The translations under genes and the position numbers were made by a program. Under the pieces are notes generated by a model. The model was not told the origin of the DNA and did no database searches. It was given only the letters and a program-made list of their open reading frames with translations. From an uncultured Rhodospirillaceae bacterium (GTDB lineage Bacteria; Pseudomonadota; Alphaproteobacteria; Dongiales; Dongiaceae), in the NCBI GenBank assembly GCA_964372215.1, contig CAYJQC010000024.1:2779-66778 (forward strand): a stretch of 64,000 nucleotides of DNA, in the 5' to 3' direction. Every line of letters starts with the position of its first letter. Position 1 is the first letter of the stretch. Positions 34,961-45,766 of the stretch are shown piece by piece.

Positions 34961-35977
34961 CTAGCCCAGGCGCTGCACGAACTCGGGATGGAAGCGGTGC
35001 AGCCGGTCGGTCGAGTAGTTGCTGCGAAACTCCCGCGGCGACTGGCCGAAATGGGAACGGAAGGTGCGCGAGAACACCTCGGCGCCGGAGAAGCCGCAGC
35101 CGAGCGCGATGTTCTGGATCGGCACGTCGCTGTAGAAAAGCAGGTTGCGGGCCGCCTGCAGGCGGATCTTCAGGTAGTAGCGCATCGGCGAATCGTTCAG
35201 CTTGCGACGGAACAGCCGTTCCAGCCGCCGCGCCGTCAGGCCGACCGCCTCGGCGATCTCCTCGGGCGGCAGCGGCTGCTCGAGATTGTCCTCCATCAGC
35301 CGGATCGCCTGGATCACCACCGGATCGAGCGACCCCATGGGCGAATCGAGCATCGCACGCTGCGGGTCGGTGCCGTGGCGGATGCGCTCGTGCACCATGC
35401 CGTTGGCGACGATCTGCGCCAGCATGGTGCCGTGATCGATGGCGATCAGATGCAGCATCATGTCGATCGCCGCGGTGCCGCCGGCGCAGGTGATGCGGCT
35501 GCGGTCAAACACGAAGATCTGCTCGACCACGTCGAGCTCCGGATAATGCTCGTGGAACACCGGCATCGCCTCCCAATGCAGGGTCATCCGGTAGCCGTCC
35601 ATCAGGCCGGCGGCGGCCAGCGCGAACAGCCCGGTATCGAGCGCCCCCAGCCGCACCCCGTGGCGGTCGAGCCGGCGCAGCCAGTTGAGCAGCCGGCGGT
35701 CGACATACTGGGTCGGCTGGTTGCCGGCGCAGACGATCAGCGTCGAGAAATCGGGCCGGCCCTCGGCCGGCGCGATCGGGCTGTCCGGCGTCACCATCAT
35801 GCCGTTGCCGGCCCGCACCGGCGCGCCGTCGACCGAGATCAGCCGCCAGTCGAACAGCCGGCTGCCGCTGTTCTGGTTGGCGATCCGCAGCGCCTCGGTC
35901 GCCGGGATCAGCGCGTAGATCGGAAACTCGGGGATCAGGAAGAAGCCGATCCGAGTCGGCGCCGGCGCGTCGGACAT
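34961..35977 (-). CDS. GlxA-family (DJ-1/PfpI + AraC HTH) transcriptional regulator
   Basis: 338 aa from ATG 35977 (GGAGGGGGAA upstream). N-terminal DJ-1-like domain, C-terminal AraC HTH (IALGCGFSGAEVFSRTFRSHFGQSP). Confidence 0.88.
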   Translation of the reverse strand: MSDAPAPTRIGFFLIPEFPIYALIPATEALRIANQNSGSRLFDWRLISVDGAPVRAGNGMMVTPDSPIAPAEGRPDFSTLIVCAGNQPTQYVDRRLLNWLRRLDRHGVRLGALDTGLFALAAAGLMDGYRMTLHWEAMPVFHEHYPELDVVEQIFVFDRSRITCAGGTAAIDMMLHLIAIDHGTMLAQIVANGMVHERIRHGTDPQRAMLDSPMGSLDPVVIQAIRLMEDNLEQPLPPEEIAEAVGLTARRLERLFRRKLNDSPMRYYLKIRLQAARNLLFYSDVPIQNIALGCGFSGAEVFSRTFRSHFGQSPREFRSNYSTDRLHRFHPEFVQRLG

Positions 35978-36300
35978 TTCCCCCTCCATTTCCGGTCGGC
36001 GGCGGGACCGGCCGCGCGCGGCGCCGCTGATTCCACCGCGCATCGTCCCCCATCATCAAAAATCTGTCGGCAAACGTCAAGTCATTGGCGACAAGCTCGC
36101 CGATAATTATTTCGCTCAGGGAGAGCTCTTTTTCGACGATGTCGGGAAAGCCCAAAGAATCGATAAGACGAGGGTGGCGGCACCCTAGAGCAGCACGCTT
36201 GGCGATTTGAGAACTATTCAGGCCACCGAAGTAATGGGCTTCGGGGCAACGGGGGCGCGCGGTCGCAGGCGGCCGACGGGTCCCGAACACGGGATCGCGC

Positions 36301-37357
36301 ATGGACTGGGACGGACTGCGGCGTCGGCTCGAGGGCTGCTACATCACGGTGCCGACCATGTTCGGGGACCCGGACCTGGCGCTCGACCTGGCGGCGATCC
36401 GGCGCCATGTCGGCTGGCTGCGGAGCCGCGGCATCGCCGCGGGCAACGCGGTGCTGCTGGGCGCCGGCGTCGCCCGCGGCGTATCGGCCCAGAGGGTGGG
36501 GGGGGGGGGGCCGGGGCTCGCGGGGGGGCACGGGGGTGCGGCGGCCGGGGGGCGCCGCGGGCGACTTCTCGGCCATGAGCTTCGAGGAGCGGGCGCAGGT
36601 GGCCGAGGCGGTGGTGGCGGCGGCCGACGGCGCGGTGCCGGTGGCGATGGGGGCGCAGACCACCAGCACGCGCGAGCTGGCGCGCCTGGCGCGGACCGCG
36701 CACGAGCTGGGCTGCAGCTTCATCCAGGTGTCCTGCCCGTTCTACTTCAGCCACACCGAGGGCGATTTCTACGACTACGTGGTGGCCGCGGCCGAGGCCG
36801 CGCCGATCGGCATCATCGTCTACAACACCTTCTGGACCTCGTCCGGCATCTCGCTCGCCATGGTCGACCGGCTGGCCGAGATCCCCAACGTGGTCGGGCT
36901 GAAATGGGCGACACCCCGGACCGACGCCATGGAGTTCGAGGATGTGGTCTCGCACTTCGCCGGGCGGCTCACCATCATCGACAACAACCTCCTGTTCGTG
37001 ATGAGCCACCTGATGGGGGCGCGCGGCTTCGAGGTGCATCTGTGCAACTACTGGCCGGAATGGGGCCTCAAGCTGCTCGATCGGCTGGCGGCCGGCGACT
37101 ATGCCGAGGTCCAGCGCATGATGGTCGCCGAGGCGATGCCCTTCTACAAGCTGTGGGTCGAGATCGAGAAGACCTACACCTCGGGCGACGGCTATCTCGA
37201 CAAGCTCTGCATGGAGCTGGTCGGGCTCGACTCCTCGCGCTGCCGGCCGCCGACCCGCGACGTGCGCGAACTCTACCGCGACAAGGCCAGAGAGATGCTC
37301 GTCAAGACCGGCGTGCCGGGCGTCATCGGCGCCGAGCGAGGCCTGCGCACCGGCTGA
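36301..37357 (+). pseudogene. NAL/DHDPS-family lyase gene interrupted by a frameshifting insertion
   Basis: The N-terminal 55 codons (MDWDGLRRRLEGCYITVPTMF...AVLLGA) are in frame 1. The remainder (GDFSAMSFEERAQV...VVGLKWAT...) is in frame 2. The break coincides with the G-tract insert at 36466-36556. Confidence 0.75.
36459..36557 (+). repeat. G-tract-rich insertion bounded by 8-bp direct repeats
   Basis: GGGCGCCG occurs at 36459-36466 and 36550-36557, 91 nt apart. The interior contains G13 (36498-36510) plus G4, G7, G5 and G6 runs. Confidence 0.7.
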
Positions 37358-44613: not shown

Positions 44614-44665
44614 GCGTGGCGAAGGAAACGCCGATGAAGCCGATGCAAACGACAGGGACCGGTGG

Positions 44666-45766
44666 ATGGCACGTGTCGAGCTGAAGGGCGTCAAGAAGCG
44701 GTTCGGGCCGGTCGAGGTGATCCACGGCGTCGACCTCGCGATCGAGCATGGCGAGTTCGTGGTCTTCGTCGGGCCGTCGGGCTGCGGCAAGTCGACCCTG
44801 CTGCGGCTGATCTGCGGGCTGGAGCCGGCATCGGAAGGCGACGTGCTGATCGGCGGCAGGTCGATGCGCGGCGTCGCCCCGTCGAAGCGCGGCGTCGCCA
44901 TGGTGTTCCAGTCCTACGCGCTCTATCCCCACATGACGGTGGCGCAGAACATGGGCTTCTCGCTGCGCATGGACGGCGTGCCCCGGCCCGAGCGCGCGGC
45001 GCGGGTGCGCAAGGCCGCCGAGGTGCTGCAGCTCCAGGACCTGCTCGAGCGCAAGCCCAAGGAGCTGTCGGGCGGCCAGCGCCAGCGCGTCGCCATCGGC
45101 CGCGCCATCGTGCGGGCACCCGAGGTCTTCCTGTTCGACGAGCCGTTGTCCAACCTCGACGCCGAGCTGCGCGTCCAGATGCGCCTCGAGCTTGCCCGGC
45201 TGCACCGCGATCTCGGCGCCACCATGGTGTTCGTCACCCACGACCAGACCGAGGCGATGACCCTCGCCGACCGCATCGTGGTCCTGCGCGACGGCTATAT
45301 CGAGCAGATCGGCACGCCGCTCGAGCTGTACAACACCCCGCGCAACCGTTTCGTCGCCGGCTTCATCGGCTCGCCCCGGATGAACTTCCTGGCCGCCCGG
45401 GTGACGTCGCGCGCGGGCGACGTGGCGCGGGTGTCGGTCGACGGCATGGAGCCGGCCGAGGTCGCCGTGACGCTGCGCGCCGGCGCCGCGGTCGAGCCCG
45501 GCGATGCGGTGGCCCTCGGCATCCGGCCCGAACACCTGGCACCCGGCGGATCCGGCGCGGCACGGCTGCAGGCCGCCATCGATTTCGTCGAGCAGCTCGG
45601 CGGCCTCAGCTATCTCTACGCCCCCGACCATCCGGCCGGCGCCCTGGTCGTGAAGCAGGACGGCATCGCGCCGGGCATCGCGGCACGGCAGCGCATCACC
45701 GTCTCGTTCGACCCCGCGCACTGCCACCTGTTCGACGCGCAAGGCGCGGCGGTGAGCGCGCGATAG
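44666..45766 (+). CDS. ABC transporter ATP-binding protein (MalK/UgpC type)
   Basis: 366 aa from ATG 44666. Walker A GPSGCGKST, LSGGQRQR, FLFDEPLSNLD and a C-terminal MalK-like regulatory domain. Confidence 0.9.
   Translation: MARVELKGVKKRFGPVEVIHGVDLAIEHGEFVVFVGPSGCGKSTLLRLICGLEPASEGDVLIGGRSMRGVAPSKRGVAMVFQSYALYPHMTVAQNMGFSLRMDGVPRPERAARVRKAAEVLQLQDLLERKPKELSGGQRQRVAIGRAIVRAPEVFLFDEPLSNLDAELRVQMRLELARLHRDLGATMVFVTHDQTEAMTLADRIVVLRDGYIEQIGTPLELYNTPRNRFVAGFIGSPRMNFLAARVTSRAGDVARVSVDGMEPAEVAVTLRAGAAVEPGDAVALGIRPEHLAPGGSGAARLQAAIDFVEQLGGLSYLYAPDHPAGALVVKQDGIAPGIAARQRITVSFDPAHCHLFDAQGAAVSAR

Follow-up and report, generated by a model that had tools for sequence, protein, structure and literature searches.

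A conserved alphaproteobacterial importer operon with two predicted cytoplasmic sialidase-fold proteins, a DHDPS-family lyase and an aldehyde dehydrogenase: a candidate uncharacterised catabolic pathway

A 64,000-nt stretch of contig CAYJQC010000024.1 from an uncultured alphaproteobacterium (hereafter the window; all positions are those of the window, whose overall G+C content is about 69%) carries a regulator gene and, divergent from it, eight co-directional genes encoding an ATP-binding cassette (ABC) importer, a Schiff-base lyase of the DHDPS/NAL family, an aldehyde dehydrogenase (ALDH) and two proteins of the sialidase fold, BNR1 and BNR2. This locus is rated as an uncharacterised catabolic pathway on a known scheme, and an enzyme clade lacking a functional assignment stands at its centre. 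On balance, it is probably a substrate-inducible catabolic operon for an imported small glycoside with a carboxylate at its reacting carbon, degraded via a 2-keto-3-deoxy acid. The recurrence of this gene set in dozens of species puts the arrangement far beyond chance. The two sialidase-fold families, the DHDPS-family lineage and the ALDH are kept together by selection, and none of them fits a curated functional model.

Gene content and conservation of the locus

Real genes were chosen by third-position GC and family searches. All nine genes listed in the first-pass annotation of this DNA were found in the order and with the families that it gave, the regulator being divergent. The features of the locus are as follows.

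34961-36043, minus strand: divergent GlxA/GbdR-type AraC regulator (Pfam PF01965, DJ-1/PfpI, and PF12833, HTH_18)
36044-36300, no strand: divergent promoter region, the 257-nt spacer between regulator and operon
36301-37357, plus strand: DHDPS/NAL-family Schiff-base enzyme, frameshifted as assembled (PF00701, E 7e-27)
36475-36559, plus strand: G-rich insert of 85 nt in the lyase gene, from alignment with the related loci L001, L003 and L005
37450-38793, plus strand: CUT1-type solute-binding protein with a Tat signal, 447 aa (PF13416, SBP_bac_8; TAT_signal model)
38897-39817, plus strand: ABC permease 1, UgpA/MalF-like (PF00528; NCBIfam matches UgpA and GlcT)
39817-40701, plus strand: ABC permease 2, UgpE/MalG-like (PF00528; UgpE, 128 bits)
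40698-42167, plus strand: NAD(P)-dependent ALDH with a GTG start (PF00171, E 7.6e-166)
42232-43440, plus strand: BNR1, predicted cytoplasmic six-bladed sialidase-fold protein, 402 aa (PF13088)
43468-44613, plus strand: BNR2, predicted cytoplasmic sialidase-fold paralogue of BNR1, 381 aa (PF13088)
44666-45766, plus strand: MalK/UgpC-type ABC ATPase with an OB/TOBE regulatory domain (PF00005, PF17912, PF08402)

The co-directional genes are separated, from 5′ to 3′, by 92, 103, -1, -4, 64, 27 and 52 nt; the stop of permease 1 overlaps the start of permease 2 in ATGA, and the stop of permease 2 overlaps the GTG start of the ALDH gene in GTGA. Because the gaps range only from -4 to 103 nt and no terminator-like site was found in the plus-strand intergenic regions of the operon, the nine genes can fairly be read as a regulator and eight co-directional genes forming one operon, which agrees with the earlier proposal based on tight spacing and overlaps. 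One sigma-70-like site lies within the divergent spacer, on the minus strand (36080-36052). The start of the binding-protein gene is preceded by a AAGGAGGAG ribosome-binding site. Two other starts were moved inward because of ribosome-binding sites and the lengths of homologues: BNR1 likely starts at 42232 (MSIIKN, with a GAGAGGAAAG ribosome-binding site upstream) instead of 42187, and the ATPase probably starts at 44666, the longest open reading frame beginning at 44534.

BNR1 relatives are encoded in at least 174 stretches of a one-genome-per-species collection, the best 80 of which were taken for locus comparison; their gene maps were made by tblastn of the window proteins, and L001, L003 and the like are labels of these related loci. 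Neighbourhoods were counted in the 53 loci of at least 19 kb (full flanks), in which partners were sought within 10 kb of BNR1.

Solute-binding protein: 52 of 53 full-flank loci
Each of the two permeases: 51 of 53
ALDH: 47 of 53
DHDPS-family gene: 46 of 53
Regulator: 45 of 53
BNR2: 42 of 53
ATPase: 37 of 53

The complete nine-gene set is present in 26 of these 53 loci. The first-pass annotation had made its proposal depend on a neighbourhood conserved in relatives, and the partners indeed recur in 37-52 of the 53 loci. The gene set recurs in several different orders and orientations among the related loci, and this shuffling points to selection on the set itself. BNR1 is the most conserved gene of the cluster: its orthologues are 71-93% identical across families, and of its more than 1,200 relatives in databases, the top 120 clusters show 73-92% identity. 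BNR2 is missing near BNR1 in several Paracoccaceae loci, and BNR1 would therefore be the indispensable propeller.

The carriers among the best 80 loci are soil and marine Alphaproteobacteria, namely Dongiaceae (the likely family of the window), Mesorhizobium, Labrys, Ancylobacter, Aureimonas, Shinella, Ruegeria and other Paracoccaceae. When 401 genomes of the class were sampled evenly, BNR1 turned up only in the window's own genome, and no BNR1 relative was found among the PLSDB plasmids at E up to 1e-20. The cluster is thus rare but strongly conserved. Where source records give a name, the BNR1 relatives are called "sialidase family protein", "exo-alpha-sialidase", "sialidase-1" or "hypothetical protein". 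An Afifellaceae genome has a second BNR1 copy (L056:18920-20128, about 70% identical), which sits within a module of an NMT1-type importer, a second ALDH and a 2-hydroxyacid dehydrogenase. Five loci (L002, L005, L026, L028 and L030) lie on contigs labelled Binatia, Cybelea, Acidoferrum, Udaeobacter and Verrucomicrobiia, all from one series of soil metagenome-assembled genomes. Their BNR1 proteins are 81-92% identical to that of the window, as close as those of the Dongiaceae loci, and lie amid alphaproteobacterial-type gene sets; these contigs are probably mis-binned, or else represent very recent transfers.

For accessory genes, all open reading frames of the best 80 loci were clustered and then scanned for families. 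A recurrent second ALDH shares about 40% identity with the first (the ALDH family has 73 members in 56 loci). An NMT1/SsuA-like ABC importer occurs in 26-33 loci, an enolase-superfamily enzyme in 20, an Ldh_2 dehydrogenase in 13 and a D-2-hydroxyacid dehydrogenase (2-Hacid_dh) in 11. About 19 loci have a UxaA/GarD-type dehydratase, encoded as one fused protein or as separate SAF small and large subunits. In L043 (11267-17582), the genes for DHDPS, SAF, the NMT1 importer and Ldh_2 are co-directional and tightly spaced, with a gap of large-subunit size, in which no gene was called, after SAF. In L021 (858-3399), split SAF small and large UxaA-type subunits abut the DHDPS gene, and in L068 (2490-6254) it is abutted by the dehydratase large subunit, the only subunit called, with Ldh_2 also present; in other relatives an enolase-superfamily dehydratase lies near the DHDPS gene. 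The lyase is therefore found repeatedly beside an acid-sugar dehydratase, which fits a role on a 2-keto-3-deoxy sugar acid. Two narrower names for accessory genes were unsupported: D-tartrate dehydratase for the enolase-superfamily gene, whose only solved relatives at E up to 1e-20 are 3SJN and 5OLC, and SuyAB for the split UxaA genes, whose homologues are named only UxaA or altronate dehydratase and which give no match to a SuyB model.

The accessory module of dehydratase, Ldh_2 and NMT1 importer is absent from the window's genome. The same holds for the second ALDH, whose gene comes after the ATPase gene in L001 and L003, the closest relatives. At this place a gene for a BBE/FAD-linked oxidase of 541 aa (45795-47420, minus strand) converges on the ATPase gene after 28 nt. 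That the FAD oxidase gene stands in place of the second ALDH points to a rearrangement at the operon's 3′ end; this gene was ruled out as a part of the unit since it does not recur in related loci. The genes further downstream (47.5-64 kb; HxlR, DUF1203, a hydrolase, and from the arginase family onward) were likewise rejected, as none recurs in relatives. Positions 49783-63972 hold an arginase-family gene, a flavoprotein of the OYE-plus-FAD type, a second DHDPS-family gene, a LacI regulator, a DAO oxidase and an MttB-family methyltransferase.

The sialidase-fold proteins and their partners

BNR1 and BNR2 both score above the PF13088 cut-off and contain five Asp-boxes each, and their AlphaFold (AF2) models are confident six-bladed propellers (pLDDT 81.5 and 91.9, respectively). 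Neither a signal peptide nor a transmembrane or hydrophobic segment was found in BNR1 or BNR2 (maximum 19-residue hydropathy 1.21 and 0.96), and because a hydrophobic segment is lacking, a cytoplasmic location of both is a sound inference; this agrees with the previous description of the two as cytoplasmic six-bladed Asp-box propellers. The paralogues are 26% identical by BLASTP, and the two families are related with an hhalign E-value of 5e-44. For both models the best Foldseek match is 5HX0 (E about 1e-23, TM 0.73-0.81), which is also the nearest solved relative of both by phmmer (E 1.6e-17 and 7.4e-20). The protein of this entry, Dfer_1899 of Dyadobacter fermentans, comes from structural genomics and has no function assigned, and its identity to the BNR proteins is only about 22%; the 5HX0 alignments have YGYR..P.G.R and FLRT segments in common, and that of BNR2 also shows DLGYP. 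Literature searches on 5HX0/Dfer_1899 found no function, ligand or paper, and searches on COG4692 or cytoplasmic sialidase-like proteins found no characterisation. After 5HX0, Foldseek returned many sialidases at TM 0.59-0.69 (about 0.63 for BNR1), structures which we take to be GH33.

The active site was compared by hhalign of the BNR1 and BNR2 families and in an alignment of 33 members, including 31 more distant members of the clade (28-47% identity with BNR1). Outside the Asp-boxes, only five residues are fixed across the clade: His45 and Glu228, both invariant, and Arg244, Arg298 and Tyr367, each conserved at 90% or more. In HMMER alignments, Glu228 and Arg244 lie opposite a Glu and an Arg of the Porphyromonas gingivalis sialidase, and the His45-His46-Asp47 loop lies at the acid/base Asp of NanI; this Asp, at chain index 49, presumably corresponds to the published Asp291. 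If Glu228, Arg244, Arg298 and Tyr367 are catalytic, as sialidase motifs suggest, the clade looks to have kept most of the sialidase catalytic core, that is, the Tyr/Glu nucleophile pair and, of the three arginines that bind the carboxylate, two, and it has an additional invariant histidine (His45) relative to sialidases. The lack of any conserved pocket, which would have told against the first-pass proposal, is not what is seen, these five residues being invariant or nearly so across the wider clade. Of the hallmarks of a GH33 exo-sialidase, the six-bladed β-propeller with Asp-box repeats is present and the F/Y-R-I-P (FRIP) arginine is not. Because this arginine is absent from both proteins, they are judged from sequence not to be canonical sialidases, which corrects the sialidase comparison drawn at first; the automatic label "sialidase family protein" should be treated with caution for the BNR genes.

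BNR1 has features of its own. Cys81, Cys84, Cys164 and Cys168 (NWDCGIC and KHGGCRLGC) are near-invariant among its orthologues and are accompanied by several BNR1-specific invariant histidines; these residues are absent from BNR2 and from the wider clade. The cysteines are assumed to lie on inner strands of blades 2 and 3, where they may form a Cys4 metal site. A Trp-rich loop of residues 101-132 (42532-42627) is modelled with pLDDT below 50 and nevertheless contains invariant S111, W112, P116, G122, D123 and W124; ordering of this loop may require a ligand or a partner such as BNR2.

The lyase contains a Tyr (in VYNTFW) and a Lys (in VGLKWA) that are read as the DHDPS/NAL catalytic pair, and over residues 43-314 it shares 81% identity with the intact orthologue of L001. 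Every score against curated NCBIfam subfamily models is far under its cut-off. KdgD models narrowly come top (84.5 and 83.7 bits; the next ones reach 71.6, 70.4 and 67.2), at cut-offs of 278 and 374, respectively, and the NanA (NAL) models PRK04147 and TIGR00683 reach 70.4 and 56.2 bits, at cut-offs of 281 and 382. An argument that only KdgD models align over the full lyase was dropped, since NAL and HpaI-type models also reach the C-terminus of the C-terminal fragment in the window. Solved structures and plasmid-borne relatives of the lyase are about 25-28% identical to it, the plasmid-borne ones all below 30%. The assignment to the DHDPS family made in the first-pass annotation holds (PF00701), but the lyase fits no curated subfamily.

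The lyase gene is broken as assembled by a frameshifting 85-nt insert, a point absent from the first-pass annotation. The frame changes between about 36466 and 36556, so that the N-terminal 55 codons (36301 to about 36466) are in frame 1 and the remainder (about 36557-37357) in frame 2. The 85 extra bases lie at the GxxGE-type motif (region 36459-36560) and are absent from L001, L003 and L005; an 86-nt slice around them has 55 G (64%), with a run of about 15 G, and their ends are ambiguous owing to short flanking repeats GGGCGCCG. The insert occurs once in the 4.7-Mb, 98%-complete genome, which rules out a repeated element. It is either a real mutation or an artefact of assembling or sequencing G-rich, low-quality sequence, and the operon in this genome is accordingly either freshly inactivated or mis-assembled at the lyase. 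That the insert is real and the operon a recently inactivated remnant, an explanation of the state of the locus and not of its function, is a serious possibility but falls short of being probable. The frame shift in the assembly would fit it, as would the failure to find a second lyase copy in the 98%-complete genome and the replacement of the second ALDH of L001 and L003 by an unrelated FAD oxidase gene 28 nt from the ATPase. However, all other genes are intact with high third-position GC, and a unique insert of 64% G with a run of about 15 G resembles a sequencing or assembly artefact.

The importer has all components of the CUT1 type, namely a PF13416 binding protein, two PF00528 proteins and a PF00005 ATPase with PF17912 and PF08402; the Tat signal of the binding protein scores 19.8 bits with TIGR01409 (cut-off 16.7), and the ATPase scores 454 bits with the UgpC subfamily model (cut-off 432). 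The nearest solved structures of the ALDH are generic ALDH2/BADH-type enzymes, and it lies under all NCBIfam equivalog cut-offs (BADH, 462 versus 669). It had been regarded as an enzyme of the type that converts a semialdehyde to 2-oxoglutarate; it is instead generic class 1/2-like and not recognisable as a 2-oxoglutarate-semialdehyde dehydrogenase. The best NCBIfam match of the regulator is GbdR, at 317.5 bits versus a cut-off of 480, and by this measure it is a family member, not a GbdR orthologue.

Proposed pathway and alternative explanations

From the observed parts, their linkage, the fold and the conserved residues, the following catalytic steps can be inferred. The Tat-exported CUT1 binding protein, the two permeases and the MalK-type ATPase would import the compound. 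BNR1, helped or complemented by BNR2, would then cleave the glycoside in the cytoplasm by sialidase-type chemistry, with Tyr367/Glu228 as the nucleophile pair, Arg244 and Arg298 holding the carboxylate and His45, with Asp47, in the acid/base loop, and a free 2-keto-3-deoxy sugar acid would be released. The DHDPS-family enzyme would form a lysine Schiff base with this keto acid and either split it into pyruvate and an aldehyde or dehydrate it to a semialdehyde. The ALDH would oxidise the aldehyde to an acid entering central metabolism, and the divergent GbdR-like regulator would sense the substrate or an intermediate.

Two forms of this scheme can be envisaged. The substrate may be an ulosonic-acid ketoside of the Dha/Kdo type, which follows the first-pass proposal and is put forward tentatively. 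In the case of Dha, aldol cleavage would yield pyruvate and a C4 aldehyde-acid, whose oxidation would give, by stereochemistry, D-tartrate; this C4 aldehyde-acid cannot cyclise, and would therefore explain the core ALDH. A less likely substrate is a 4,5-unsaturated uronide, whose enol ether would be hydrated by the BNR enzymes. Some sialidases hydrate Neu5Ac2en, and the O-C(COO-)=CH unit of an unsaturated uronide would mimic this compound. Hydration would release 4-deoxy-5-hexosulose uronate, which the ALDH would convert to 5-keto-4-deoxyhexarate; a KdgD-like DHDPS enzyme would then produce 2-oxoglutarate semialdehyde and an ALDH would oxidise it to 2-oxoglutarate. This form accounts for two ALDHs and for the accessory dehydratases of the GarD or GudD type.

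Several observations weigh against the glycoside pathway in both of its forms; they concern the missing FRIP arginine, the atypical lyase motif, the lack of a conserved enzyme for the aglycone and a regulator of a betaine-associated type. The FRIP position, at which sialidases have the first carboxylate-binding arginine, was placed by spacing (Arg266 of NanI would be index 24, eight residues before the K of KEGTL), as the HMM alignment ends short of this strand; here BNR1 has an invariant Asn21 (Asn21-Gln22), and BNR2 has Tyr25...His28 without an arginine. The mean column identity of BNR1, 77%, is unusually high, and together with its Cys and His invariants it could indicate a different, metal-dependent chemistry. 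The carboxylate-binding motif, GTTGE in DHDPS and GSTGE in NAL, is GAAGD in the lyase, where KdgD has GGTGE. In KdgD, whose motif reads GGTGEF, Thr54 holds the distal carboxylate, and Tyr141, Arg143 and Lys167 are listed as residues (PMC13398020); the lyase has Ala as the equivalent of Thr54 and Thr as that of Arg143. The ALDH is far from KGSADH models (GucD-type, 377.9 versus 770; Halo-type 2,5-dioxovalerate dehydrogenase, 344.9 versus 750), and the solved proteins nearest to the binding protein, only at E about 1e-10, bind neutral oligosaccharides, apart from one whose ligand is unspecified. An enzyme for the aglycone, be it a polysaccharide lyase, a uronate dehydrogenase, a sugar kinase or a second glycosidase, is not conserved nearby in the 80 loci. 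Finally, regulators of the GbdR type are associated with betaines and amino-acid derivatives and are not known to respond to sugar acids.

Some of these points would be explained if the BNR proteins were not glycosidases at all but a lactonase, isomerase, cyclo-isomerase or dehydratase, possibly metal-dependent, acting on a free acid sugar or lactone; the operon would then be a variant non-phosphorylative acid-sugar pathway whose importer takes up the monomer. Six-bladed propeller lactonases exist, BNR1 is conserved across families far above a typical exo-glycosidase, its near-invariant cysteines and histidines occur in BNR1 only, the accessory genes are all for acid-sugar enzymes, and the missing FRIP arginine and second-sugar enzyme count in the same direction. 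However, the apparent retention of the Tyr/Glu pair and two arginines by the clade is hard to explain under unrelated chemistry, a CUT1-type binding protein of 447 aa is usual for di- and oligosaccharides, and the cysteines are not common to the BNR2 of the same operon; this explanation is considered rather unlikely. An ordinary Neu5Ac utilisation locus with intracellular sialidases, NanA and a SAT-type ABC importer would share the sialidase fold, the DHDPS/NAL-family gene and the CUT1 importer, and some sialic-acid ABC importers are of the CUT1 type. It is nevertheless extremely improbable: the FRIP arginine is absent, GAAGD replaces GSTGE, the NAL models give 56-70 bits at cut-offs of 281-382, no NanK-, NanE-, NagA- or NagB-like family is conserved in the 80 loci (with checks of size and Pfam), an ALDH would have no role after ManNAc, and the carriers are soil and marine Alphaproteobacteria.

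The accessory genes and the surroundings of the operon bear on two further explanations. In a sulfonate route, the lyase would yield pyruvate and sulfolactaldehyde and the ALDH would oxidise the latter to sulfolactate, which in relatives would be desulfonated by SuyAB-like split UxaA proteins, along with a ComC-like Ldh_2 and a TauA/SsuA-like importer of free sulfonates. The split SAF small subunit and GD_AH large subunit seen in relatives are the architecture of sulfolactate sulfo-lyase, the Ldh_2 protein matches L-sulfolactate dehydrogenase at 136 bits, and the NMT1 binding protein matches the SsuA family at 86 bits. Yet all those scores are under their cut-offs, and close homologues of the large subunit are named only UxaA/altronate dehydratase. 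A 2-keto-3-deoxy sulfosugar acid would have to be made by a dehydrogenase and a dehydratase that the core does not contain; a sulfite exporter or oxidase is not conserved in the neighbourhood, and the accessory module is missing from this genome. The route is considered highly improbable. Catabolism of a nitrogen-containing osmolyte or imino-acid conjugate, through a deaminase/dehydratase of the pyrroline-4-hydroxy-2-carboxylate type and KGSADH under a betaine-type regulator, is also improbable. It would suit the GbdR match of the regulator and the genes at 49.8-64 kb (MttB, an N-methyl-amine-type flavoprotein, the arginase family, DAO and another DHDPS-family gene), and Pseudomonas hydroxyproline genes combine an AraC-type regulator with a DHDPS-family deaminase and KGSADH. 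However, those downstream betaine-type genes lie outside the conserved neighbourhood, the 80 loci show no conserved epimerase or D-amino-acid dehydrogenase, the CUT1 importer is of the sugar type, and the accessory genes are acid-sugar enzymes.

Under the glycoside pathway, a bolder proposal is that the Dfer_1899 clade forms a new glycoside-hydrolase-like family, with His, Glu, Tyr and two Arg and without the FRIP arginine, that hydrates the enol ether of 4,5-unsaturated uronides or, just as new, that its members are cytoplasmic Dha ketosidases; we hold this to be doubtful. If enol-ether hydration were true, the operon would encode an all-oxidative, ATP-free route from the ALDH through a KdgD-like DHDPS enzyme to an ALDH, ending at 2-oxoglutarate; if the enzymes were Dha ketosidases, this would be the first catabolic pathway for Dha, a sugar of pectin and algal theca, ending in D-tartrate. 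Identification of the substrate would give a function to the Dfer_1899 clade, which, in clusters at 50% identity, numbers about 100 with an E-value limit of 1e-30 and about 1,300 with one of 1e-10. It would probably reveal that the sialidase scaffold supports a new activity, either glycosidase or hydratase, and would add an acidic-sugar route, of the Dha/Kdo type or for an unsaturated uronide, to carbon-cycling maps.

Comparison with known systems

The first-pass annotation could not name a pathway for this gene combination, and the literature searched for this analysis yielded no matching pathway or paper; searches on the gene combination and on Kdo/Dha catabolic enzymes found no description of the clade or cluster. 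Individual stages of the proposed scheme do have counterparts. GH88 and GH105 unsaturated uronyl hydrolases, working with TogMNAB-type importers, are likewise cytoplasmic enzymes that hydrate an enol ether next to a carboxylate in a CUT1-imported acidic oligosaccharide. They differ in being (α/α)6 barrels, and TogB-type proteins are not among the nearest solved relatives of the binding protein; a sialidase-fold unsaturated uronyl hydrolase was not found in the literature searched. A chemical precedent for the unsaturated-uronide form is the oxidative DEHU pathway of Flavobacterium sp. UMI-01 (FlRed, FlDet and FlDeg), in which the open-chain product of an unsaturated uronate is oxidised to 2-keto-3-deoxy-hexarate and converted via 2-oxoglutarate semialdehyde to 2-oxoglutarate (PMC8563752). 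The chemistry is the same, but short-chain dehydrogenase/reductase and RraA-like enzymes act there in place of the ALDH and DHDPS-like enzymes here, and no sialidase-fold enzyme takes part.

The oxidative uronate/aldarate pathway of Agrobacterium and Pseudomonas (Udh, Gci or GarD/GudD, KdgD and KGSADH) resembles the gene sets of relatives in placing a DHDPS-family enzyme after an acid-sugar dehydratase (UxaA/GarD or enolase type) and before an ALDH. Unlike that pathway, the locus has no uronate dehydrogenase, its lyase scores 84 with KdgD models at cut-offs of 278 and 374 and has Ala as the equivalent of Thr54, and the BNR proteins and CUT1 importer have no counterpart there. The regulator shares with the GbdR/CdhR/SouR AraC family the architecture of a GATase-1/DJ-1-like sensor and an AraC HTH, but stands here beside a sugar-type importer and acid-sugar-type enzymes.

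The nan clusters, such as the Clostridium perfringens NanH/NanA operon with its intracellular sialidase, NanA lyase and ABC importer (PMC4509764), provide a comparison at the level of the whole scheme. In contrast to them, the present locus lacks the FRIP arginine and equivalents of NanK, NanE and NagAB, its propellers have a new invariant histidine, its lyase fails every NAL model (GAAGD), its core includes an ALDH and its regulator resembles GbdR. What the two have in common is the propeller fold with Asp-boxes and, as far as alignment suggests, the Tyr, the Glu and two arginines, as well as the proposed succession from import through a cytoplasmic sialidase-fold enzyme to a Schiff-base lyase of the DHDPS/NAL family.

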